DNA of 64,000 bases from Raillietiella orientalis (lineage: Eukaryota), in contig JAYWIR010000023.1 of the NCBI GenBank assembly GCA_036172245.1, forward strand, positions 1,922,001 to 1,986,000, written 5' to 3'. The translations under genes were made by a program, and so were the position numbers. Each line of letters starts with the position of its first letter. Position 1 is the first letter of the stretch. The notes beneath the pieces are model-generated. The model did no database searches. It saw nothing but the letters and a program-made list of their open reading frames with translations, and was not told the DNA's origin. Shown one piece after another: positions 8,051-61,250 of the stretch.

Positions 8051-8234
8051 CAGGCCACAACGCTGCTGTTGCGCGAAGTGGTTTAGCTTACAATGTTTCC
8101 AAGAAACAGAATGCTCCCATGTATAGACCGTGTTTTTAAGGGATAGAACATGCAGACCTTGGAATAATGAAGTTATTGGTCGTTGCTACAGCCTGCAAAA
8201 ACCAATGACCTGCAAAGAACGACCTGCCCGTGTT

Positions 8235-8711
8235 GGCGGCCACGTGGCTGCTGCAGTCTCCGCACGCGGTGGCACCAAACGTTGCGGATTCGAATCCTAC
8301 CTGGGGAAGGATCGACGCCGAGAACGGAGTGGGGTGGGGTGCGTCATGGGTTTGGAGTCACCTCCTCCTCAGGGTGACGTTGGTTGATCTGAAGGCTTCA
8401 GGTGAGGCAGCTTTGGAGGGAACCGGATGCCCCTGATGAGTGGCCGAAATTGGAAGTTGCCCCTTCAGGGTCCTTCCGAAAATCAAGGAGTCCTTCGGGG
8501 TTCCCGCCGGTTGTGAAAATTGAGCCATCTGCCCCTCAGGAAGGAGGGGGTCCTCATCGCATACCAAGGAGCTAGTTGGTACCCTCCACGGGGGTTGCCT
8601 CTCCAGAGTGTTAGTAGCGCGCTTCTCCCTTCGGAGAGCGCCCTTCAGGGAAATGGGGAAACGCCCCTTCGAGGTTCTCTGTTCCATCGATGTTTTGATG
8701 AACAAAAAAAA
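8235..8711 (+). mobile_element. tRNA-derived SINE-like element, copy A
   Basis: The head GGCGGCCACGTGGCTGCTGCAG...GGATTCGAATCC has A-box- and B-box-like motifs. Head and body align with the reverse complement of 58262-58866 (e.g. GGGGGTTGCCTC, CTCCCTTCGGAGAGCGCCCTTCAG). Ends in an A-run at 8701-8711. Confidence 0.75.
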
Positions 8712-9539: not shown

Positions 9540-10097
9540 GGGTTAGAGTTCTTCCTGCGAGATGGCGCTGGCCGTCCTCCTCCATTCATTCGGGTACCGC
9601 ACCGGTAGCTGTTTAAACAGGATGCCCCCGATGAGGGCCGGGAAAATGGGAATCGACCTTCGGATTCTTCCAGGAATCAAGGATTGGGGGGGGGGATTCC
9701 CCCTCCGGTTGTGCAAAGGAGTGGACCCCCTAGTGTGTCGTAGTGATGGAGTCGGTGTGTCGCGACCTCTCCAGAGAGTGCAAAGAAGCGAGCCGATCCC
9801 TTCTTGGAAGCTGCGCCCTTCCGGATTTCGGAAGCGTCCCTTCGGTGCTCCCTTCAGAGGAGGAATAAACAGAAGCGGTTCCCTTGCAAGAGTTTCCTCT
9901 GGAGAAGCCATTCTAGGAGCAGATCCTTTTCGGATGTTCTTCGGAAAAGAAAAATGGAGCGGACCCCTCCGGGGGTCCCTCCGGAAAGAATAAGGAACGA
10001 GATTCCCTACGAGGTTCCCCTACGGAGACAACCAGGGTGGAGATGAATCTCCATTTCTGGTGATCCCTGCTCAGTTGCCGGGCTCCGTGCCCTTCCT
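9540..10097 (+). mobile_element. SINE-like element, copy B (head missing or unrecognisable)
   Basis: The body matches copy C: GGAAGCGTCCCTTCGG, AGCGGTTCCCTTGC, GGAAAAGAAAAATGGAGCGG, CAACCAGGG, GTGCCCTTCC. Confidence 0.7.
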
Positions 10098-19930: not shown

Positions 19931-21220
19931 TTAAGAGAAACTGAACTGACACTTGGAGAGAGAAGACAACTTCTGGAAGCCAGCAGAACATTGAAAAATC
20001 TCAGAAGATGGCTTACAGTTTCCTCCTGGATCCAGTACCAAGCCTCTGGAGCAAAGGTACGAGGAAGAAGTTGATTCACGCGTAAAAGCCACTTCCATTG
20101 GAATGACATTTTCCCTGCACTTCCAATTGAAACTTCGTTTCGCTCCCGGTACGCATGGCACCAACGTACTGGCTTCAATTATTCTTCCTTGCTTTTTGAT
20201 CGACTGCTTCTGTTTGAATTTCGAGACAGACTTGCGAAAGGTTTCCGTACTGTTTTTCAAGGATTTGGGGTGTTCCGCTCGCTGGCTAACAGAATGCTGC
20301 CTTTTCCTGAACGTGGTTTCAAAGATACACTGAGGCTGGAAATTAACCAAGCCCATCCGACCTCCTGGGTCACAGACGTCCTCACTTTCATAGTTCACAC
20401 AAAAGCCTTCATATGGAATGAGAAGTTCTTCGCAGAATTGGGGTAAGCACTGGGGCACTCCACCCTCACTCACCGCCCATATGTTGCCCAGGGAACATGG
20501 TCCTCTGGAGAATAGCCTGTAACAAGTACCGGAAACGTCGTGAATATGGCCTTCAGAACAAGCACAATGAACCTCTCCCAGCCAGTTTATGTATGCTTTC
20601 TGATTTGGTTTATTGCACAGAATCCTGTCGTGTGGATCAAGGCAACGCTGCAGAACTGGGACGAAAATCTGATCCTCCTCACAGAGCTGAGGAACACAGT
20701 TTGCCAACCTAGTTTCCTTGTTTCCCAAAATCCATCTTCCCGTTTCACATGGTTGGTTCAGTGCCACACAATCCCCATCGACTGATCTCATTTGATTTCT
20801 AGAACACCCGTCAGGCAGCTCATCCACTCCTTCCAAAGGTAAAGGTATTGCCGATAAGTCAGGGGTGACAAGACTGACTAATAGGGATTCTATTTGGGGA
20901 TTCAGACTTTGAGGGGTTGTACTCGGCTGTAGGCTCGGCTGTAGACTCGGTTGTAGACTGGGTTGGGAGGGGAGATTCTCAGTGATGCAAGATACGGCAA
21001 ACCCAACAGTGAGCATGAACGAATTGATAAGTCCAGTTGTGAACAAACTTACGCGCTGATCAGGGATATTGAGATAAATAAGTTGGTTTTGCATAGAAAA
21101 ATCGTCGTTATCGTTTCTCTCAAAAGACTCTCGGGGAACTCTGATCGCCTCGTATGCATGCTTGGCTGTCAAGAGTCCAGATGCAACAGATATTCCCCCT
21201 AATGCTGGGCACACAGCCAT
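19931..21220 (-). CDS. cysteine-rich DUF4789-like protein, probably secreted
   Basis: 429-codon ORF, the longest in the window. Repeated modules CVALNQPCETGRWIL, CVPQLCEEDQIFV, INWLGEVHCACSEG and CYRLFSRGPCSLGNIW match the remembered DUF4789 pattern CYxLxxRGPCxxG. C-terminal PCVPGAKR..KCR. The hydrophobic segment SLFTTGLINSFMLTVGFAVSC is followed by (PSLQ)n. The true start is uncertain (internal Met or an upstream exon). Confidence 0.85.
   Translation of the reverse strand: MAVCPALGGISVASGLLTAKHAYEAIRVPRESFERNDNDDFSMQNQLIYLNIPDQRVSLFTTGLINSFMLTVGFAVSCITENLPSQPSLQPSLQPSLQPSTTPQSLNPQIESLLVSLVTPDLSAIPLPLEGVDELPDGCSRNQMRSVDGDCVALNQPCETGRWILGNKETRLANCVPQLCEEDQIFVPVLQRCLDPHDRILCNKPNQKAYINWLGEVHCACSEGHIHDVSGTCYRLFSRGPCSLGNIWAVSEGGVPQCLPQFCEELLIPYEGFCVNYESEDVCDPGGRMGLVNFQPQCIFETTFRKRQHSVSQRAEHPKSLKNSTETFRKSVSKFKQKQSIKKQGRIIEASTLVPCVPGAKRSFNWKCRENVIPMEVAFTRESTSSSYLCSRGLVLDPGGNCKPSSEIFQCSAGFQKLSSLSKCQFSFS
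20918..20967 (-). repeat. coding 12-bp tandem repeat (QPSL)x3-4
   Basis: ACTCGGCTGTAG GCTCGGCTGTAG ACTCGGTTGTAG ACTGGGTTG on the plus strand. Confidence 0.85.
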
Positions 21221-23601
21221 GACACAAAAAGAATTGCTATCACCCAGAGACTTTCTTTATCAGACTTCCTTTGTCATAATCATAGTGAATGGAACTGTGC
21301 TGACTCACGGTGATCGGCTGTTCTTAAAAGCTACTCAGATCACTCATCTTGACCCCTGGAAACGTGACCTACACATGACAAAATGAAACACCACCGTTAC
21401 GGTGATTTTCTGTCAGAGAGAGAAAACATTTTGATAAAAGAATAGCATAACCAGTGCCGATAGCTGAACACCCTATGGAATTGAAAACAGGAGTAGCAAT
21501 GGTGGCCGAACAGCATGCTTTCAATTAACACAACTCTTTTGGGGGGGGGAAGGGGGAGGGGGGGGGTGAACAAACTGAGAAATAAATACATTTTGGCTCC
21601 GCAACTCGTACTACAAGCAACTACAAATCCAAAGAACCAATATTATTTAATGTTCTCTCAAAGCCTGAATGACAGAAGAACACGAAAACGTGTGAGTAGT
21701 CGACAAACACTGAGCATGACTGGTCCTCATTGAGGTAAACCGCAAATGATCCAAATAACTGTTCCTCTGCTGCCTTTTTTTTTTTTTTTAATTGAAAGAA
21801 AGAGCAATGAAGATTCCTGGGAGAATTAAAATCTGGGAAAATCAACAAAAAGAGGATAGCTTTTCCTTCCTATTCTTTAGTTTACACGTTTATCCAGATC
21901 TTTTGAGTTACCGTGGTTTCACTGAAATTTCACATTTTTTTTTTCTTTCTCGGAGTTCAAGGCTGATTTCTCAGTTCCAAGACCTTTATTTTACGTACAC
22001 AATTTACTACATGGTTGATTCTTATTAATCAGACACAGAGACCTGTATCTGTATATGCAGACATATACTGAATAGTACGGTGGATTAAAAAGCAAAACAT
22101 TCTTGTACACCTGTAAGTCTCCATAAACTGAATCTTTGTATTTCTTTTCTTCGTATTGATCTTCCTCATTATTGTTTCACTGAACGAAATGCTTACATGA
22201 TATACTTCATCTCATCTGAATCCTCGGAGGCGAATCTTTCGGGTTTTAAAATTACCCTTCAAAATGTTGGAAATATTCCAAGTTAGCTTTGTGCAAAATG
22301 TGAGATTTGCTCTCTGTGCTGTGCTGCTCAATCAATTGTAGTTTCGACTTTCACATCTAAGTTAGGAAGACTTCTAGATATCATTTCCAAATATTTACAC
22401 TTGGACAGGATATAAATGGATGGAGGATGATGACAGGAAGCCACTAATAGAAAATGCTCTGTATTCAAGGTTTTCTTGAAGTGCTGCTGTTTCCTACTGT
22501 GTTTGTGGGATCATTGGGAAAGTTCCCTGTTTCAATGATTTCTCCTTATGACTACTTTGAGCTTTTTAAAACAGAAATACTTATCCATTGATGTGCACTG
22601 GCTGCAATACGGTGATGGGAAACATCACTAATAGACAATTTTCTGCTTCAAGCAATCAAATCCTGATCAAAAATTAACTAGTAACAAAAGCTGCAAGATT
22701 CAGATTTAGTTCAGCATGCTTTCATTTAGCAGCATCTTTTTAGAGAAACATGACCAAAAGCCTTCCCTTAATGTAATTCCATAAATATAAACACTGCAAA
22801 AAAAAAAATAGGTGGGTCATTTGCATCCCCTTGTGCTGTGTATTTATGAAAATACTTACATGTAGACTATAGAGTAATTACTTGCAAATTTCTATTGTAT
22901 GTCTAGCTCATCTTTAAGAACATTAAGTCAATCAAAGTCAACCAAGCTGTCATGTATTTTCTGGCATAATCCTTTCTTCAATGTAGTGTTACAAAACAAT
23001 TTATCATGCATGAGAAACCCCGGATGGAGAAACAAATGTTTCATTGTTAATCACATTTACTGACAAGTGCCATGCTGAACAAGTGCAAATCAACTCCTTA
23101 ATGTCCTTTCCCTTTACTACACTGACCAACAGAGATGCTTAGCCAAGACAAGATCGCACTTCACAATAGCACAAAAGCATTTCCAAACACAAATACGAGG
23201 TTTTCTGCAATTAACGTGATCTACAACGGTTAGGCTTTTTTCTCCAAATTAAATGAACGAAATCAGTCTCCCATTCAAAGCAAGCAACAGAACCAAACAC
23301 GTAGAACCTGCACATGTTGCATGTGTAACTGGCCTTCGTAAGTCGCAATTTAAAATTACATCCTTAAAATGTTGCCGTGCTTGCTAACGCTCTCATACTG
23401 AAACTTCTGCACAGTTTCGGCTATACTTGCTTCAGTTTTGTGTACTGTACCTTATCACAAGGTACACGGTTACTGCAGCATTACTAAAAAGAGTGCAGGA
23501 TGAGAGAAATACATTAGCTGTAATCCCTGTTTTGCACAATTATTGCAATGCATATGAGATGAAATAAATGAAATAAAACATCACACTGTTTCATATAAAG
23601 A

Positions 23602-34356: not shown

Positions 34357-34392
34357 TATAAGATGAGGAATCTTCGATATTCAGAAATCATT
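34357..34392 (+). promoter_or_regulatory. putative TATA + Inr core promoter of cystatin-like gene 1
   Basis: TATAAGA at 34357, with TCAG (34381) and TCATT (34388) Inr-like sites 26-33 nt downstream; ATG at 34424. Confidence 0.45.
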
Positions 34393-34423: not shown

Positions 34424-35901
34424 ATGTCAAACATCTTTGTGCTTCTATCTGTGCTTGCTATTGCTGCATCGCAACCCGTCACTCAGGTACGTTTTTTTCC
34501 TTCTAGAAGTGAATTAAATGTGATTAGGCTGTGTTTGCACAGCACCTGGGAGCCATGATTTTCTCTTTCTCGGAACTCACCATGTTGCCCTTGCGGGCAA
34601 TCCCCTGACCCTTTTCATGCCCTTGAATATCCATCAAAGAAATTTCGCCTTAGCGGAACAAAACTTAATGATGATAATGATTAGAGAAAATAAGTTAGTG
34701 AAACACTTTTTCCACATTAGCGAAATCCGTGATCAAGTTAACAAAGCTGTCTTAGGAATAATCAATTGTGATACTCCTTAGCATTTTATTTCAATTCTCC
34801 TCGCACTGTAGGTAAACAGAGAACCAATGTTGTCCGGGATTCGAAATTTCTTCAGTGATTGGTCTCGTGGGTAACCACGAAACTGGTCAACTTCTGTTGG
34901 ATATTGTTCAGATTTTTAGAACTACTTTTACTGATTGTCTGGCAATTCGAGCTTGATCTTCGTCTGGTACCTGTCTTCAGTTTTGCGAAACACCAAAGAG
35001 GTGCGAAGAACTTTTCCAGTGATTCGCAGCAAAGATACCGAAACACCTCGTCTCTAGCCGCTACTGCTACCGTCTTTTCTCCTTTAGAACGACATTTGCT
35101 TCCAAAATATGGAGAAGATAAACATTTTGCGTAACCCATCCAAAGATGTTTTGATGGATCTGCACAGAATAGAACGAATGTCTCCATCCGCATAGTGCAT
35201 TCGTTCAGTTAATTGAGGATGAACACCCTTGGACACGGTCGAAACTTTTCGAGTTTGTTTCTAATTTTTCAACACACTCTTTAGAAAATATGAAGCTCAC
35301 CTAGATTAGGTTACATTTTTCTTGGGCTCCAATGTATTCAGTACTACCATTGTGCGTGTTTTTTGATGTAGTATACGTTTGATGGAATGCTGCCAAATTC
35401 GTGTCGAAATTTATTAAATATCAATCATAAAAGTCACCCAGTCTGAAGTTGAATCTGTAGTTCGCACAGGGTTCCCACTTCTAGAAATTCTTTACTCTCT
35501 CAACAAAGGTATTTGATTGCTGCTACGCTTTGCAGACTCTCAAATTGATTCCCGGAATCAAAGATCAAAAGAACGACTGAATGTCAATGACAACGTAATG
35601 CCCATTTCAGAGAAACACATCGTCTGACGAGGAGAACTCTGCAGATCACGATGCGGCCAAGAAGGTACTTTCGACTGTTCAAAGTTCTTTGCCTCCAGAA
35701 GTCCGGGACTGCCAGCTTACCAAGATCGATGACTTAATTAAGAACTCACAATCTCTTGCACCGCAAATAGAGATATTGCACATGAAGCCTACTTATACGT
35801 GCTCTGATGGAAAATCTGTCAAGTGCCACTTTCGCGTCCAGCACGACGTCTCTAAAGATGCTTCACAGCTGACTTACAGTCGCTGTGATGCCAACGTTTA
35901 A
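34424..35901 (+). CDS. secreted small protein, predicted non-canonical cystatin-like fold, paralog 1 (exons 34424-34486 and 35611-35901; 117 aa)
   Basis: Exon 1 MSNIFVLLSVLAIAASQPVTQ (signal peptide) ends CAG|GTACGT. Acceptor CCCATTTCAG|, phase 0. Exon 2 reads RNTSSDEENS...AAKKVLSTVQSSLPPEVRDC...KPTYTC...KCHFRVQHDVSKDASQLTYSRCDANV*. AATAAA at 35987-35992. Clear paralog at 38147-38830. Extra small exons in the intron cannot be excluded. Confidence 0.85.
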
Positions 35902-36494
35902 GTTGAAAGCATGGAAAAGAAAGAAAGAAAGAAAGCCCGAGTAGCTACATTGATTTTTGTAGCAACTATAGCTTTGCGAAAATTTCAATAAAAAAGCCGC
36001 AACTTTATCTGTAGCATTTCCTTATTTGTTATTGGGACTTTTCCATCCTTTGTTTTCCATTTTGCCTTCCTCACGTCCCATACTTGATATTCTAAGATTT
36101 GGAGTTTTCCCATTCTCTGCTTGGATTCCGGGCATCTGCATGACTGGAGCAATCTTAATGCACCATCGCCATTTTTTCTTTTACTTAGCTGTTGAAGATG
36201 AATGGCTGATTATTTTTTTTTGAAGACACAAAAAATCGTGGAGTTTCTCTGCTATTGAAAACACCACATCTTCCCTGAGGATTCACAAAATCGTGCAGCT
36301 TTTTCAGCAATTTACCAGTTCTTCATTCCTTTCTCTTTTGTTTCTTTCGAAGGTGACACACAGCTGCACATGGGAAGCGGAAACTAAAACTGCCCCTATT
36401 CTCATGGTTCCCCCCAAGAGATCCCTGCACTGCGTTAACCGTGAGGTGCAGGCGGTCGTCCACTAAGGAGCAAAAGAAAAATAAGCAAAAGATA

Positions 36495-37000
36495 CATGCT
36501 GACAAATAAACCGCGATCGACTGATCCGCTGACCACGAATTCTGCCCTTGGCGAGAATGAACTTTTCAATCTGGCCCTCTCATGTGTCCGGCTTCCACCC
36601 GTTACCCAGCGGCAAAAGAAACCTCCACGACTGAGCTCATTAGTGTGAAACGCACACCGCACGATCCGCGGGCAGATCGAGTGATCCACTGGCGGAGGAG
36701 CAGTTTCGGTGGTTGTCAGATCACACCACAACGCCGGGAATTTCCACGGGTATTTGTGCCACTGATGGCCTGTCTTTTAATTGATCCATTGCATCCCATT
36801 CGGCCGTGTATCTTCCGTTACTGCGCCTGGCGAGCAGATGTGCAGAGCCAAATGCCTTGCAAGAGCTGACAAAGTGATCGGCAAAGGGCATCTGCAGCAT
36901 TTCCTAGATACCATCGTTTGTAATTCCTGAATGAGTGTAGCAAGTACGGGATGTGGCATGCATGTGATGAGAAGCAGACCGGTCTCCGGGATCTACCGAG
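36495..37000 (+). mobile_element. degenerate L1/Tx1-like RT fragment between the two paralogs
   Basis: NKPRSTDPLT/HEFC (nKspG.Dglt.EFy), TELISVKRTPHDPRADRVIHW (i.li.K...d...yRpIsl) and KGHLQHFLDTIV (KAFD.v). Confidence 0.45.
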
Positions 37001-38084
37001 AAGGGAAACACCCGTTGCATCTTACGAATTTGTCTCTTGCATCATGTTTAGTAGTTAGGTAACCTCTTGACCTTATGCAAGAACCAGCATCGAGCTGCTT
37101 CCTGCTAGGCATTTTGCAGAGTACAGGAAGATACGGAGAATTTGTTACACGTCTTGAAGAGTGAAATCTCCTGAACTGTGGCGCTAAACCAAGAGCTCGT
37201 CATTCCTGAGCAGCATGGGCACCGCTAGCAGTGCCAACTCTTCGTGGGTCACTGTTTCAGTTCTTACAGGCGCTTTCTGATTCACTTATATGAAACCAAT
37301 CTCGTTTTGTAGGGATCACATAGACTCTACGGTAGCATCATATCGGGTATAAAAGCAATTACAGATCTGCTCACTTCGTGACCTTTGACCATTCATGAGA
37401 AATCAAAGGCACCGTATGAGAGACCGCACCCACAAGAATCCCTATTTGAAGAAATGCTATCATAATATGAAAAAAAAAAACCATGTAAATACAAAAGGAC
37501 GGACCAACAGACGCTACTAGCAGGACAGCCGCATCACTGGTAGTCTATTTTACGGACGTCAGAGTAAAACTATAGATACACGACAAACGTCAGGATGGGA
37601 CGTGAGCGCCATCTTCCCAAAGGAAAATACAACACGTTCGGTACAGAGAGGATCCGCTTGCTCTGCCGTTGGATCACCGCTTTCGCTGTCCCGGCGAAGT
37701 CGGCTTTCCTAGGTCACAACCCTATTCGGAAACTCGCGTTTCCGGCGCGCACGAATCTGATTGGACGGCGCCCTAGCTGCCAAATCCGTTTCAGGGGTGG
37801 GACCCGGAAAGTTCTGGACCTTTCTATCATGATACATACAAAAAAACAAATCCGGGATTCGTGTTTTTTTTTTTTCCCAGAAAGTTGAACGACCTCTTGC
37901 ATCTCGTCTGGGGTTCATCGAACTTTCTCGCCAGCACGAGCGACACACGAAAGACCTTTTGTCCATAGGGGAATAGCGAAAGGAGGAGAAGGCGGATTGT
38001 CCTCCCCCAGCCCCCCGGAACCAAACCCCTTCCTCCTTAATGAAGAGTGCGGTTAAGGGTCAACGTTTCCTTTCTTCAGGATGG

Positions 38085-38117
38085 TATAAAGTGTGGAGGC
38101 TGTGGAAATGTTTCAGG
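38085..38117 (+). promoter_or_regulatory. TATA + Inr core promoter of cystatin-like gene 2
   Basis: TATAAAG at 38085, and TCAG with its A at 38115, exactly 30 nt downstream; ATG at 38147. Confidence 0.65.
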
Positions 38118-38146
38118 ATCCTCGTAGCTGAAGAAGGAGTTGCAAG

Positions 38147-38830
38147 ATGAACATGTTACTCGGCGTTTTCGTGTGTTTGCTCAGCCTGTCCCTGGCGGAC
38201 GAGGATGTGCCCAAGGTTCGTAGGGGGCGGGAGTGGAGCAGGGTCGTGCATGCTTGCGGGAGGGTAGTCGATGGTGTGACGAAGAAAGGAGTGAATGAGG
38301 GTGACAGCTGAAAGGCGTGTTTCCTCCTGTGCGGAGGCTGGGATCGGGAGCGACGGCGGACGAATGTGGTGATTGGAGGGTTTTAGGGATGTGGTGATGA
38401 TGGCGCCGTGAATGGGTTGCGTGAATGGGCCTCGAGTAGCGCGATTGAACTAATGAGACGTCCATTGCAGGAGACCGGACCTGTGCAGGATCCCCTGCCT
38501 AGCTTTCAGGTGAAGGATGAGAACAGCGAGAAGAGCGAAAGCAGCGAAAACAGTGAGCACAGCGAAGAGTACAGCTCGGCCCGGAAGGCGCTCCTGGCCG
38601 TGCAGACTTCCTTGCCCAGAGAAGTCCGCGAGTGTGAGCTGCAGAAGCTAGAGGAGATCACGAAAAACACCATCGTACCACAACTGACGGTTTACAATTT
38701 GAAGCCAACTTATTCCTGCGCCAATGACATTTCGACGAGATGCCACCTGAGAATTCAACAGGACAGCTCCAGCGAAGTTTCCGTGTTGGCGTACGCCCAG
38801 TGCGGAGAAAGTTCTGCTCCGATCTTATAA
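38147..38830 (+). CDS. secreted small protein, predicted non-canonical cystatin-like fold, paralog 2 (exons 38147-38215 and 38471-38830; 142 aa)
   Basis: Exon 1 MNMLLGVFVCLLSLSLADEDVPK ends AAG|GTTCGT. Acceptor TCCATTGCAG|, phase 0. Exon 2 has an acidic Ser/Glu linker, then SARKALLAVQTSLPREVREC...KPTYSC...RCHLRIQQDSSSEVSVLAYAQC...*. All four mature Cys align with paralog 1. Confidence 0.88.
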
Positions 38831-38999: not shown

Positions 39000-41300
39000 G
39001 AAAAGAGCAAACAAGAGTTGCCTCTCGACGTCTGCTGGGTGGTGCCATTCATATTCTCCGTTCAAGCTAAAAAGGGTGGAAGTAGACGAAGGGGAATCTG
39101 CAGCTTTGAAGGACTCATGAGAATCGAGACCACCTACCGATTGTCTACATCACCAGACCGAAGCACAGGGGTAAGGGACAGGGAATTAAGGCATGGAAGG
39201 GATAGGGGTCATTGGTGCAGGACGATACGTGTCTTCTGCATCCTCGAGACGTCTGAACTCGGTTGAGGCCATCTCGCTGTCTTCATCAAGAAAGCTGCAA
39301 TGAAAGTGGCTTCCCGTCGCTGCTGGCGGAGCTGAAGCTGGCAGCAGGTCTCGCGATCACATCTGCGGCCGAGAGTATCCTCCCCCGCGCGAAGGAACGA
39401 CGTAACGAGTCCCAAGGTGCGTGGACCGGATTCAGGAGCGCTGTGTGTGTGTGTGCTTTTTTCTCCTGTCCATTCGCGTGCGCATGCAGCCGAGAGCAGC
39501 TCCATCAGCAGATGTCTGAACGACTCGATCGCCTACGAGCTGCCTCCAGAGTACTTGCAGAACTCATGGAAACGTTTATCTGAGACTGGCTGCTTCTGTT
39601 TCTCGTCGCTTGGCACTTCGGTTCCTTGCATTGGGTGGATTCCATTGTATGCTTCTAGCATAAAAGGTATAAGCTTTGTAGAAAGAACGATGGCATGGAT
39701 GATAGTTTATCAACCTCCATCATCTCTCCATGAAGAGATCACAGAAGTTAGAGATTATTTTTAAGGAAACGGGACCTGACAATCGCTCGCTTCAGTGAGG
39801 GTATCATTCCTCGGCAAAGATTCCTCAGCATCCCTCTCTTCATGTGTAATAGAAGTGTTTGCAAAGAGTTATTTAGTCCCGACATTGAGCATATTCAATT
39901 TAGAACCTGCAAGGAGGAGAAAAGATGATTTGGGAGGGGGAGGGGAATCGTGAGAACATTTCAAGGGTAAGACCATTCCTGGTTCTTTGACAGCACTCGC
40001 CTATTACCGCATTCGCGAGTGAAGCCCAGTGGGTTCGCATCTTCACAAAGATGAAGCATGATCCGCAGACTGACTGACAGCAGCTGCAGCCACGGGCACA
40101 CTCGATGTTCCCTTGATCCAAAAGACAAACCTGCAGCAAAGTCCAAACCGGAATTCTCCTGCTGAGGTCGGAGACCATATTGGGCCACCTGATATCGAAC
40201 ACTGGCGTGCCACGTTTGGTACACCAAGTAGCCGGAAAACGAGAGTCAGAAGCAGCCCCTGAGATCAAGGAGGTGGATCTAGAAGCCATGTGGATCGAGC
40301 GAGTGTGAGCGGATATTGGATAAGGGAAGAGTTCTCGGCTCAGATTGTCAGAGACAGCGTCAGAAACTCTAACTTCATCGCTAAGGGAGATGACCGTTTG
40401 GTCACTCTCATCCAGGACGATAAGCCGGTCAATACTGGGGTTGCCTCAGGAAGTCGACAGCCAGATGTGGAGCCACGCAGCCAGAGTCGACTCTTCATAC
40501 TGTCTCAATCTGCTAACATGGAATCAGGCGGTCACGATTCTGTCAAGGGTTGACTCGGAACTTTGAAAGGAGGACTTAACACCCCAGAACCAAGGTCGAG
40601 ACACCTTTACTCGAGGTTTCTCGTCCATGGGAGCAGGCAGCGACAGTATTGGAAGGGACCGAACACAGGAATCTGTCTTTCCTATTTGTCGACACAAGGA
40701 TATTGCTTCCGGTGAGAGCACTGGCAGTGGGATCGAACCCTAGGAGTCTGGAATGTGAGGAACGATGGGGTGCTTGATCCCTGGCATGCAGGCAAACAAC
40801 GAAGAAGAGGGCAGTAGGTGCCGATATTCAGCATAGGTGGGACATTCCTGGAAATGGAGGAAGCTGCAGCGATTCCCGTGCCCCAACATTTACTGTGGGC
40901 ACCAAGAATGAACACGAAATCAGGCCACTGTCCACGAAGTCGATCCGTGAAGAGTGGACGTGGAAAAAGGACGCGGATAGATGAATGCTCATCTTCGTTT
41001 CGAGAAAGTTCGGAGTTACAGAGGTTCCACGGCGAGGCTGCCTCTGCTTTTACCTGGTGGTGTCCAGGCAAAACGGCGGATGTGGGTTGCGATGCTAGGG
41101 ATCTTCTAACATCTGGTGTTTTCCTCCTCCCTCTACATGACGGATGCACGTGGAGTAGTGATCTATCTGATCCTTTGCCTCACTATATCTTGGTCTTTAG
41201 GAGTAGCACTGCACGTGCTGCACGGCAACTAGAATGCATTCCTACCTGCTCACTAGAGGAAGCTGCTTCCTGCTGCCTACGAAGAATCTCCTATGCTCAG
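39000..41300 (+). mobile_element. degenerate L1/Tx1-like ORF2 (end of APE + RT)
   Basis: RDHLPIV...GIKAWKG*GSLVQD (SDH.pv...Wk.n.sll.d, from 39125), KETGPD (~39765-39780), SPITAF (RPIsll-like, ~39995), GVASGSRQPDVEPRSQSRLFIL (GvRQG.PlSp.LF, ~40437-40500) and HLLWAPR...SVKSGRG (F.W...GGlg). Confidence 0.7.
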
Positions 41301-58261: not shown

Positions 58262-58866
58262 TGGAAGGGCACTTGGAGTCGGAGGACCCTCGCCCTGGTT
58301 GTTCCTGAAGGGAACCCCTGAGGGAACCTCTTCTTTATTCTCTCCAAACGGCCCCCGGTGGGCACCGCTCCCCATTTCTTTTCCGGAGAGAATTCGCAAG
58401 GGAACCGCTCCTTTTTGTTGCTCCTCCGGAGAGAATCCCGAAGGAACGCTTCCCGATTTTTCTGAAGGGCGCTCTCCGAAGGGAGTGCGTTTCTGATACC
58501 TAGAGGAGGCAACCCCCAGAGGGGAATGCTCCATGCTCCATCAACTAACTCCATTATGAGCGATGGAGGCCGCCCCCCGGGGGGAGGGGAACGGCTTCAT
58601 TTGCACAATCGGAGGGGGAATCCCGAAAGCAACCGGCTCTCCTCGATTTCCGGAAGGATTCCAGAGGGTCCACTTCCAATCCCGGCCAGCCGACGGAGCA
58701 CCTCCAGTGCTGCACCCGAAGCCTACAGATGAACTAAGGTCATCTTGCGGGGGTACTCGAAACTCACAACGCTCTCATTTCTCCGCGTTAATCCTCCAAG
58801 TGGGGATTCGAACCTGGGACGTTCGGTGCCACTATGCGCGGAGATCGCTGTAGCCACGCGGCCGCC
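58262..58866 (-). mobile_element. tRNA-derived SINE-like element, copy C (best preserved)
   Basis: The minus strand starts GGCGGCCGCGTGGCTACAGCG (A box-like)...GTCCCAGGTTCGAATCCCC (consensus B box). The body has degenerate GTTCCCTTC-type repeats shared with copies A and B. Confidence 0.8.
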
Positions 58867-58869
58867 TAC

Positions 58870-61250
58870 GCAGGCGCACTGTCCTTTCTTCCTTGTCGAG
58901 GGGTGGTGCGCTCCGTGTTCAAGCGTCGATCACTTCCCGAATCGACACCGCAGCTTTGCCGTAGCTGAAGCGAAGAGGGAACGGACGGACGGCTGAAGAC
59001 AGGAATCGAATTGGGATCAGGATCGTGCTGCCGGGAACGTAACCAGCTGCTACGCGTAGACTCGTGGGCTACCTTTCGAGCATCGCCGGGCCGATGCCTC
59101 CTGACGCATGTGTGTAGCACGCCTGCAGTTGCAGCGCTGAAGCCTCTAGGGGCACCGGCAGGCCATTTCGATGGAGAGTGTCTCAGCTGACCACACCTGT
59201 GACACATCCCAGTCCTTCGGAGAAAGGAACTGCCCGGATGAAATCATGGCGGGAGTCCGAAAGAATGACCAAACTGAGCACGGAGAACGAGCCGATGGAG
59301 GAAAAGAACGGACACGTGCACAGTCTCCTGCTTGCTCCGGCTGGAGAGTCCGAATCGTCGCAGCCTCGACTCCGGACTGCGAGACCATGAACCAGGAAGA
59401 ATGGTGAACGAGAAACTGAAACCTCCGAATCTGATTTTAATCCTTTCTACGGGGGGAGAGAATCCCTCTATTACGGCGTCGGGAGGTCGTTGGGGCGAGC
59501 CGGAGTAGGGAGGGCTCCAACTGAAACGGAAGCATTCGGCGAAACAGGTGTGTTCGAATTTTCCGTCCTTCACACAGGGTTCTCATGGACAGAACAAGGA
59601 GAGGAGTAACCTCGGTGACCTGCGCTGCACCCCATCACGGGTCGCTTGGATGTCACCCATAACCGGGCCCTCGGGCAGTCATGTACTCTGGGAAGGGAAA
59701 TGGAGGCTTCAAGAAATCCATTATAAGTAGGGTCGAGATAGCGGCGGATGCTCGGATGCAGGGCTGCGGTGGCAGATCTCGAGAGGAGGAGGACGAGGTG
59801 CACGAGGTTTCAGCCGTGCTCTCCATAAGTGATGGATGTGCACTGGCTCCTTTTGACGTCTCCCCACTTCCTCCTCGGAGGGCAGCGCGGCTCCTCCTGT
59901 TCACCCACGGTGCACACACCGTGGGTGAACAGGGTCGGCATTCCGCCGTCGATCCTGCCACGTGAGACGAGCAGCGCTGCCTGCAAGCCAGGGACGAGAA
60001 CGTGGGCTGGGGCGAGTTCGCTGCCCCCTTCTCCCTCCTGCTGGATTTCGAGACACCAATCGGAGCTCAGAAGCTGCCTGGACTTTCTCAGGCTGCACCG
60101 CCACTGTGTGGTGGAACCGACAGCAACGAACGGTGGAACGACGAAGGGACGGAAGGGAAGCCGTCATCCGCTTTTCGATCTCCTTGAATTTTCCAACCTC
60201 CGCAGTCGCGTTGGATCCTTCGCGGGATGAAGCCGCGGCTGAGAAGGTTCGCTGGTGCTGCCTCGGTGCTGGCGTCCTCGCTGAGCGAACGCCAGCAGCG
60301 GGCCGAGTCATGTCCCTCACACCCTGCGGGGGATCCTGAGTAACGGAAACGCTCCGCAACTAATGCGGCATCGCCGACCACGCCACGAACCGTTCACGTG
60401 ACTTCTCCATGCTCCCCCGAAGGGATAAGCAGAGGAGGCGGGGGAAGAGGAGGCTCGATCTGCGCTCTCCTCTGTCTGACGGGATGCCATGAGTCGCGGC
60501 GGAGCGCCCAATCGGGTGCGGCGAGCCCGCTTTGCGAATCTGACTCTGCTGACGTCAGCACAAGGTGGCGCGGGGGATCCCGTCCGGGAAGCTGCGGATT
60601 CGTCGGCGAGGTGCCCACCTCAGTCTCCATGCCACTTGCGCTATCGCCGCACCAGGCGCTTTTGAGTGAGCTCATCTAGAGAGCATGTGACGGTTCGGGA
60701 GAGTCAGAGTCGCCTTCAAGCCGTCTTTTCCGCGACCTCCGGTGCCAATGAGCTCTTGGAGAGCAACCGCTGCAGCTCCGTCTCAGGTCCTCTTTTCATC
60801 ACCCTTTTCCGACGCATGATCAAAGCGAATGTTAGCCCTCCCGCCCTCTTCGAAGAAGCTCCCTGTTGAGATGCTTCTTCTTTCCTTCCCCTTGGGATTC
60901 TCGCTCTCTGAGAGACAGCTTTGCGAACGCGCCAACTCCTGATAGTTTCCTGTTCCTCAGGAACCCGTCGATGATTCTTCCCGATAGATGAAGAATTCGC
61001 CAGCGGTTCGCGATTTTCTGGTTGCGTCCGAACATGCTCCTCATGTCCATGTTCCATTCCTTCGATGTCTTTCCGGCATCCTGAAACGAGCTCTTCCGCG
61101 GGAAGACCACACGAAGTGCGACCAGGGCTCTTCCCGGAAGACGACGTTCCTTCAATCAGGGGTTCGCTTGGCTTTTCGCTTCATGGTGCAGCGACTCTGC
61201 TCTCGAACAAGCTGGCCATCATGAGTTTTGTTCCGAGTTGCATCGTCCAG
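58870..61250 (-). mobile_element. 5' part of an L1/Tx1-like LINE (ORF1-like region + APE endonuclease remnant)
   Basis: A GC-rich low-complexity ORF1-like region at ~59900-61250, then an APE-like series: GFLEASI (fLQETH), DGKF, PYSG, IRFGGFS (GDFN), FHPG, RRHRP (SDH.p), RSSWLR...DPNS (W.lN...Dp.f). Confidence 0.5.

Follow-up and report, generated by a model that had tools for sequence, protein, structure and literature searches.

A dispersed family of secreted proteins with a predicted cystatin fold and no inhibitory motifs in the arthropod Raillietiella orientalis

Type 2 cystatins (MEROPS I25B, PF00031) combine a signal peptide with a single domain of about 90 residues, made of a helix and an antiparallel sheet, with a cysteine pair across the last hairpin. 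Their first disulfide sits inside the appending loop, between strands β3 and β4. Cystatin folds do not always inhibit papain-like enzymes. According to one survey, SQAPI (squash aspartic proteinase inhibitor) and latexin have cystatin folds that were re-targeted to proteases of other kinds, and loss of inhibition with a new function is the prevailing trend among vertebrate cystatins (PMC2784779). In arthropods, the group 4 cystatins of the spider mite Tetranychus urticae are lineage-specific and lack the N-terminal Gly, QxVxG and Trp, while the four usual cystatin cysteines are kept; they are described as having no known paralogues elsewhere, and as carrying YNK/SKPY motifs and, in part, the legumain-binding Asn (PMC3407033). 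Finally, an engineered L47C-G69C disulfide stabilises the monomer of human cystatin C, in which domain swapping moves residues 1-58 (bioRxiv 10.1101/654772, which also defines the appending loop).

Here we analyse two neighbouring genes in a 64,000-nucleotide window of the Raillietiella orientalis genome. Like type 2 cystatins, their products have a (predicted) signal peptide, a single domain of similar length, a predicted helix with an antiparallel sheet and a cysteine pair across the last hairpin. Unlike them, they have no N-terminal Gly, QxVxG, PW, legumain Asn motif or appending loop; their first cysteine pair spans β2-β3, and no match is found at the sequence level. The preliminary description saw in them a tandem pair and a candidate for an undescribed system. 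The two genes are indeed adjacent, but they belong to a dispersed family of at least eight members in this genome, and a third close copy (G000:C23:1988525) lies 2.5 kb beyond the window end, 28 kb from gene 2. The family is not a new system, since families of cystatins without motifs are known (spider mite group 4; fetuin, latexin, CRES): the earlier wording was overstated in view of the published arthropod groups (PMC3407033) and of the vertebrate trend (PMC2784779). We favour, with some reserve, an old and dispersed secreted family from the type 2 cystatin lineage that lost its papain-binding wedge and was re-targeted into stable binding modules.

Table 1 Predicted features of the two genes and of the tract that gene 2 has in common with the third copy (positions in the window)
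Feature	Position	Strand	Remarks
Gene 1 core-promoter-like words	34357..34392	+	TATAAG (34357) and TCATT (34388, 31 nt downstream); motif scan, consensus match only
Gene 1 exon 1	34424..34486	+	Predicted signal peptide, 21 codons; ATG 34424; phase-0 GT donor
Gene 1 intron	34487..35610	+	1124 nt, GT-AG; predicted
Gene 1 exon 2	35611..35901	+	Short acidic linker, predicted cystatin-fold domain (~35638-35889), stop
Gene 1 Cys codon starts	35710, 35800, 35824, 35884	+	In exon 2
Gene 1 polyadenylation signal	35987..35992	+	AATAAA
Gene 2 TATA word	38085..38090	+	TATAAA; motif scan
Gene 2 exon 1	38147..38215	+	Predicted signal peptide, 23 codons; ATG 38147; phase-0 GT donor
Gene 2 intron	38216..38470	+	255 nt, GT-AG; predicted
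Gene 2 exon 2	38471..38830	+	Ser/Glu-rich linker, predicted cystatin-fold domain (~38564-38806), short tail, stop
Tract common to gene 2 and third copy	37665..38490	+	Third copy at G000:C23:1988525

Splicing and transcription of both genes are predicted from sequence. The spliced frames, each of two exons joined in phase 0, are open and encode 117 aa (gene 1) and 142 aa (gene 2), in keeping with the proposed shared design of a signal-peptide exon, a phase-0 intron and an intact coding sequence. A hydropathy scan finds a hydrophobic first exon with a phase-0 donor in both genes, and the single domain is followed by a stop codon in each. TATA words precede both genes as claimed; the initiator-like word said to accompany them was found by motif scan for gene 1 and not for gene 2. 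Across the family, 6 of the 8 members have a phase-0 signal exon no more than 3 kb away, compared with 9 of 92 control windows, at a distance threshold set after the candidates had been seen and with two of the six sharing one exon.

The exon-2 products of the two genes align locally with a score of 220, the maximum in 1000 shuffles being 54. Counted by hand, 37 of 90 alignment columns are identical, or 34 of 77 if only those from the core helix onwards are taken, close to the 34 of 78 first estimated, and the four cysteines align. Purifying selection, also proposed earlier, is borne out by pN < pS in three pairs (Fisher p 3e-7 or lower; pN 0.32 vs pS 0.75 for gene 1/gene 2); for gene 1 against gene 2 and against the third copy only proportions are given, because dS is saturated. 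In the family tree none of the six inner branches is starred, and the genome's own canonical cystatin sits on a very long branch. Five further candidates from the same genome (L018, L092, L093, L095 and L096) were rejected as non-members. A possible half-domain (L063) lies about 50 kb upstream, and a mitochondrial insert is present near the locus.

Gene 2 and the third copy have nearly the same 5' half. Upstream identity is 255/291 and then 179/181, followed by 69/69 in exon 1, 228/230 plus one 25-nt indel in the intron, and 20/20 over the first 20 nt of exon 2. Beyond this point the linker retains 22 of 67 identical nucleotides, and the domains have diverged. Gene conversion of the 5' half is therefore likely.

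The AlphaFold models of both domains (pLDDT 88.4 for gene 1 and 90.1 for gene 2, the latter from an input alignment of nine rows, one of them the genome's canonical cystatin) predict one helix and a four-stranded antiparallel sheet. Among 48,161 chains searched, SQAPI (2kxg) is the best structural match of both, with Z 9.2 for gene 1 (rmsd 2.6, 82 aligned) and Z 9.3 for gene 2 (rmsd 2.5, 81 aligned), values slightly higher than the 7-8 given by the tool as usual for models that lack a clear match. Potato multicystatin follows at Z 9.0 for gene 1 (rmsd 2.6, 82 aligned) and 8.7 for gene 2 (rmsd 4.0, 86 aligned), then cystatin F for gene 2 (Z 8.1, rmsd 2.9, 84 aligned) and cystatin E/M for gene 1 (Z 7.5, rmsd 2.5, 82 aligned). 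Latexin (2bo9) scores Z 7.4 and 7.6 against the gene 1 and gene 2 models, CRES 7.3-7.5 and fetuin-B 6.5-6.7. The three first Foldseek matches are cystatin E/M, cystatin C and chicken cystatin, none at E 0.001 (best E 0.072); a viral fold library gave nothing at E 0.001. Models and structure searches thus agree with the helix-over-antiparallel-sheet, cystatin-like fold proposed from the sequence, and the loops fall where they had been placed.

The four cysteines are invariant in 8/8 members. Their spacing is 29/7/19 in gene 1 and 27/7/19 in gene 2, including the noted 19-residue spacing of the last pair as in cystatin C; across the family it ranges over 22-29, 7-8 and 17-20. In both models Cys3 lies in β4 and Cys4 in β5, so that the pair would bridge the last hairpin. 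Cys1 precedes β2, and the first pair appears to flank the β2-β3 hairpin; the strand boundaries of both models fit the earlier suggestion that an extra cysteine staples this hairpin. In the models β3 and β4 are linked by a 5-residue turn only, and the appending loop is missing. We regard pairing of Cys1 with Cys2 and of Cys3 with Cys4 as highly probable. The nearest parallel is stab-1 human cystatin C (L47C-G69C, 3gax), at Foldseek rank 12, whose disulfide ties the swappable N-terminal part. That protein is engineered and keeps both inhibitory motifs and appending loop, whereas the staple of the present family is apparently natural and family-wide, in an approximate register. We found no natural β2-β3 disulfide in a cystatin in the literature within our reach, which leaves out most subscription journals.

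The inhibitory motifs are missing from both window genes. The N-terminal Gly, present in the genome's canonical cystatin, is absent from the first 15 aligned residues of genes 1 and 2. QxVxG occurs in loop 1 of none of the eight members; the one match, due to chance, lies C-terminally in the C31 member, outside loop 1. PW is found in loop 2 of 0/8 members, and the domains of the two window genes lack Trp altogether. The legumain-binding Asn motif S/T-N-D/S (as defined in PMC3407033) follows the helix in 0/8 members; unlike in T. urticae group 4, YNK is not present there in the family alignment. Motif scan and alignment of the members thus uphold the claimed loss of all three wedge elements, and loss of classical inhibition is likely.

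The proteins could nonetheless still inhibit C1A (papain-family) enzymes or legumain, through a wedge remodelled to the genome's own expanded cathepsins. The genome holds 124 exon-level PF00112 matches against one single-domain cystatin above the cut-off; 43 of the 124 reach profile position 216 or beyond (a hand count, several on duplicated-looking contigs), and the 12 best are either interrupted by stops or incomplete over the domain. In spider mites, C1A enzymes and divergent cystatins expand in parallel and variant motifs can stay active (PMC3407033). In gene 2 and the third copy, the residue corresponding to the Val of QxVxG is still hydrophobic, and the gene 2 model has a tight loop-1 turn; with many papain-family genes in the genome, some residual inhibition is therefore possible. 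However, a remodelled inhibitor fits poorly with the absence of all three wedge elements and of the legumain motif, with a loop 1 of variable length (149/196 pairwise positions gapped) and a loop 2 of 11/98 identity, and with a long acidic linker, devoid of a conserved Gly, ahead of the helix. We consider it unlikely.

The linker itself could point to binding of extracellular matrix or mineral, as in fetuin-A or Spp24, with a role in cuticle calcification carried by acidic, potentially phosphorylated Ser/Glu stretches. Mature pI is 6.05 for gene 1 and 4.6 for gene 2, the organism is an arthropod, and fetuins, Spp24 and latexin are described as cystatin-domain proteins linked to calcification (PMC2784779). 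Yet S-x-E sites are few (one and three, respectively). The acidic linker, proposed as a common trait, is seen in both window genes but does not extend to the whole family: in the third copy, the nearest paralogue to gene 2, its place is taken by a Pro/Gln/His repeat. This role seems improbable.

Descent from cystatins was weighed against convergence, in which a helix-plus-sheet domain would have reached the cystatin arrangement without cystatin ancestry. The family matches neither PF00031 nor PF16845, the latter recognizing the genome's canonical cystatin (type 2, G000:C3:4846535), and no cystatin-clan Pfam is found among seven members; gene 1 has no Pfam family and gene 2 one weak Treacle match. 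The profile match to the canonical cystatin is weak (hhalign probability 0.3%), and the real score was reached in 48/2000 and 192/1000 shuffles. Convergence would also account for the lack of a significant Foldseek E-value, the non-canonical first disulfide and the unrelated folds, NTF2-like ones included, at Z 5-7.8, such as DCAF15 (Z 7.8) and a viral capsid protein (Z 7.0-7.2) within the top rows. On the other hand, the highest-ranking chains in three structure searches over the two models are mostly of the cystatin superfamily. Length, secretion and the last-hairpin cysteine pair fit a cystatin, and the canonical cystatin aligns colinearly with the family, with Cys3 and a β5 Leu in common. 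Of the proposed cystatin-fold family, the predicted fold thus stands, while descent is not seen at the sequence level. We judge cystatin ancestry very likely and convergence quite improbable.

Other sequence searches found no homologue outside this genome. Of the 30 PDB sequence matches listed, 29 belong to TAL-repeat proteins in which no one stretch passes by itself, an artefact of summing over repeats; a PDB profile search gave two weak, unrelated rows, and the three matches of a profile search among 1.84 billion representatives (Ig-repeat, low-complexity and fn3-repeat) were rejected as repeat artefacts. The ESM Atlas gave no usable match for gene 1 or the third copy. A homologue search with gene 2 returned 13 candidates, none scored; since it was also blank for the canonical cystatin and for the DUF4789 protein of the window, it is evidence neither of novelty nor of the lineage restriction proposed earlier. 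No description of the family was found in the literature consulted, most subscription journals being outside reach.

A role as antimicrobial precursor or effector, after the manner of cathelicidin or anti-lipopolysaccharide factor (ALF), is very unlikely: the proteins are small, secreted and predicted to be disulfide-bonded, a cathelin domain scores Z 5.4-5.5 and the Cys3-Cys4 hairpin presumably bears a loose resemblance to that of ALF, but beyond the last Cys the aligned stretches hold only 3-12 residues (4 in gene 1 and 8 in gene 2, with no cathelicidin-type cationic C-terminal peptide), the domains are near neutral (K+R 11 vs D+E 11 in gene 1, 9 vs 11 in gene 2), and the members have no match to PF11630. 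The structure-search rows listed, which need not name every family, do not include ALF.

We return to re-targeted cystatins. The signal peptide would export each protein, with a low-complexity, variable linker ahead of the domain. With the papain-binding wedge of N-terminal Gly, QxVxG and PW apparently lost, the proteins most likely no longer inhibit papain-family enzymes in the classical tight-binding manner; they would probably be stable extracellular binding modules with other partners. Cys1-Cys2 on β2-β3 and Cys3-Cys4 on β4-β5, both at the base of the sheet, should lock the monomer as disulfides, and the former should prevent a cystatin-type domain swap while permitting variation of loop-1 length. 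The most plausible role would be defence or control of another protease class, as for SQAPI, latexin and CRES, and we see the chances of such a binding or defence role as about even. SQAPI and latexin are plant or vertebrate proteins with 4-11% identity to the family, and their likeness in fold shows no function. CRES, fetuins, HRG, Spp24 and cathelicidins resemble it in lost motifs, secretion and a kept cystatin domain (PMC2784779); they are vertebrate-specific, with other cysteine patterns or several domains and no detectable sequence link. T. urticae group 4, compared by description only, is likewise an arthropod expansion without motifs and with four cysteines. Arthropod multicystatin-C1A peptidases join several cystatin domains to a papain-like one, and such a gene lies on C6, whereas the family is single-domain.

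A bolder and doubtful extension is a natural repertoire of stapled, swap-proof cystatin scaffolds. The two hairpin loops would be diversified for different targets, and gene conversion would renew the shared 5' segments for regulation and export but leave the binding domains different from one another. If true, it would be the natural counterpart of the engineered Affimer and stab-1 scaffolds.

No new mechanism is opened so far. If the β2-β3 disulfide is real, the family holds a natural anti-swap fix comparable to that of engineered human cystatin C, a point of modest value to work on cystatin aggregation and on scaffold design. Altogether, an arthropod family is added to the cystatin folds without an inhibitory wedge. 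As sequence searches do not detect it, more such families may hide among 'orphan' secreted genes.

The preliminary description had placed two tandem genes, here gene 1 and gene 2, in the window, and both were recovered there with open predicted frames and phase 0 introns. Their predicted spliced products comprise 117 and 142 amino acids, respectively, and a TATA-like word precedes each ATG, by 67 nt in gene 1 and 62 nt in gene 2. The exon 2 products align with a score of 220, compared with a maximum of 54 in 1000 shuffles. A hand count on the alignment gives 34 identical residues in 77 core columns, matching the earlier estimate of about 34 in 78. The purifying selection proposed for the pair is borne out as well: the 74 codons compared give pN 0.32 and pS 0.75 (Fisher p = 3e-8), indicating that both are maintained as coding genes.

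Features of the window (L032 is another stretch of the same genome, in local coordinates; C23 is the contig containing the window; G000 is its assembly)
Feature	Position	Strand	Description
Gene 1 exon 1	34424-34486		predicted; 21 codons, hydrophobic
Gene 1 intron			predicted; 1124 nt, GT-AG, phase 0
Gene 1 exon 2	35611-35901		predicted
Gene 2 exon 1	38147-38215		predicted; 23 codons
Gene 2 intron			predicted; 255 nt, phase 0
Gene 2 exon 2	38471-38830		predicted
Shared tract	37665-38490 vs L032 1649-2450 (G000:C23 ~1987650-1988450)		88-100% identical, 5' half of gene 2
DUF4789 ORF	19931-21256	minus	single long ORF, 441 aa stop to stop
Diverged inverted repeat copies	8226-8680 and 58430-58875; 9915-10037 and 58293-58412

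Elsewhere in the window, the DUF4789 ORF has two stretches of that domain and a short SLQP linker that is repeated; a homologue search with the ORF scored no match. The 338-nt stretch at 39205-39534, 90.5% identical to a sequence about 44 kb downstream (L033 8893-9230), is probably a repeat element. The dispersed repeat behind the inverted copies is also present on contigs C5, C31 and C44. Genome-wide, Chitin_bind_4 has 14 matches above cut-off, which together with the DUF4789 gene indicates an arthropod.

Single-protein searches of the 210-Mb assembly identified at least eight family members, scores having been computed for the best candidates only: one each on C31 and C5, two on C44 and four on C23, namely gene 1, gene 2, a third copy 2.5 kb beyond the window end and another some 195 kb further on. 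Five further weak candidates were rejected. Four Cys and one Leu are invariant in all eight. A phase 0 signal-type exon lies within 3 kb upstream of six members and in 9 of 92 control windows, at a threshold chosen after the candidates had been seen and with one exon common to two of the six. The C31 member (L010 1480-1707) and one C44 member (L012 1459-1725) carry four and three N-glycosylation sequons, respectively, the domains of the four C23 members none; this C44 member apparently contains an additional phase 0 linker exon of 57 nt. Separately, a plus-strand ORF at L063 5442-5654 (G000:C23 ~1907440-1907650) resembles the family's three final strands and carries the final two Cys (search of 5514 ORFs, E 0.0086). 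A search for a fitting upstream exon found none, and the ORF may be a remnant, a distant relative or a chance match.

Gene 2 shares an almost unchanged 5' part with the third copy, 28 kb downstream: identities are 179/181 in the promoter, 69/69 in exon 1 and 228/230, plus one indel, in the intron. The match continues for 20 nt into exon 2 and ends there sharply. Beyond this edge, linker (22/67), domain (174/246; dS 1.25, dN 0.27) and 3' end (45/94) have diverged. The simplest reading is that a recent gene-conversion tract probably ends near 38490, mis-assembly being the alternative.

The inhibitory motifs are missing, as first proposed: gene 1 and gene 2 lack the N-terminal Gly, QxVxG and PW, and also the legumain S/T-N-D/S motif. 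PW and the legumain motif are missing from all eight members, and the only QxVxG match among them falls at a C-terminus by chance. The Val position of QxVxG is still hydrophobic in gene 2 and its closest paralogue, and loop 1 is tight in the gene 2 model.

AlphaFold2 models of gene 1 (pLDDT 88.4, 8-row alignment) and gene 2 (90.1, 9 rows, including the genome's canonical cystatin) both contain one long helix, one short helix and four strands. In a comparison with 48,161 chains, gene 1 matched SQAPI (Z 9.2, rmsd 2.6, 82 aligned) and potato multicystatin (Z 9.0, 2.6, 82) best, followed by a tie at Z 7.3-7.8 of DCAF15, MS5, tarocystatin, cystatin E/M, CRES, mialostatin, latexin and cystatin F; gene 2 matched SQAPI (9.3), multicystatin (8.7) and cystatin F (8.1). 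Foldseek ranks 1-3 were all cystatins, none with E below 0.001. Support for a predicted cystatin-like fold is thus good but not overwhelming, since Z 9 is a little above the tool's common range while cystatin-superfamily matches consistently dominate.

In both models, Cys1 immediately precedes beta2, Cys2 immediately follows beta3, and beta3 connects to beta4 by a turn of only five residues; the models thus lack the appending loop seen in vertebrate cystatins. Spacings across members (Cys1-Cys2 22-29, Cys2-Cys3 7-8, Cys3-Cys4 17-20) are those expected of two stapled hairpins with variable tips, and we infer that the cysteines pair accordingly. In human cystatin C, residues 1-58 are exchanged between molecules in the domain swap, and an engineered L47C-G69C bond is described as making the monomer more stable (bioRxiv 10.1101/654772). 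As a Cys1-Cys2 bond would join the same two parts, it could plausibly block swapping.

On C3 lies the genome's single ordinary cystatin, which has Gly, QLVAG and PW. Its alignment with the family is colinear, with Cys3 and the beta5 Leu in common. The similarity is not significant: hhalign probability is 0.3%, and 48 of 2000 shuffles score at least as high as the real HMM comparison, the figure for the summed global score being 192 of 1000; nor do cystatin Pfam models match any member. Descent from type 2 cystatins, whose canonical basal metazoan forms have two conserved disulfides (PMC7913475), is accordingly suggested by fold, size, secretion and the last-hairpin Cys pair. Convergence of the fold we regard as quite improbable.

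Functionally, we lean towards proteins that would be exported via the secretory pathway, fold as monomers, each locked by a pair of disulfides, and bind an extracellular partner by means other than the classical papain wedge. Class switches among cystatin folds are described for SQAPI, latexin and CRES, and the prevailing trend given for vertebrate cystatins is that inhibition is lost and new functions are gained, mostly in innate immunity or involving other proteases (PMC2784779). The main rival, that the proteins inhibit papain-family enzymes of the animal itself in an altered way, is possible though clearly less probable; PF00112 has 124 exon-level matches in the genome, 43 of which extend to the end of the domain, and some lie on contigs that appear duplicated. 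In this large papain-family expansion, the clusters on C3/C141 and C9/C173 look like such duplicates. C6 (~5699800-5703300; L042, L067) holds an apparent multicystatin-papain-like gene with degenerate cystatin domains; its peptidase-like exon seems to have Tyr at what we take to be the catalytic His position. A mineral or matrix role is unlikely, the acidic linker being lost in the third copy, that closest to gene 2. An antimicrobial precursor is very improbable, given tails of only 4 (gene 1) and 8 (gene 2) residues and near-neutral domains.

The family does not qualify as classical cystatins, lacking the inhibitory motifs, or as cathelicidins, its tails being too short for a cationic peptide, and no member matched the ALF profile PF11630. 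No homologue outside the genome was found by homologue search, in the ESM Atlas or by a profile search of 1.84 billion representatives; restriction to one lineage does not follow, because the homologue search used for gene 2 also missed the canonical cystatin. Our literature search listed no account of this family and none of a beta2-beta3 staple occurring in nature. In the spider mite, group 4 cystatins are described as a lineage-specific arthropod group that lacks G, QxVxG and Trp and retains four Cys (PMC3407033), so motif-less cystatins are already known. The two-gene observation is real, and the pair belongs to a new family of a known kind.
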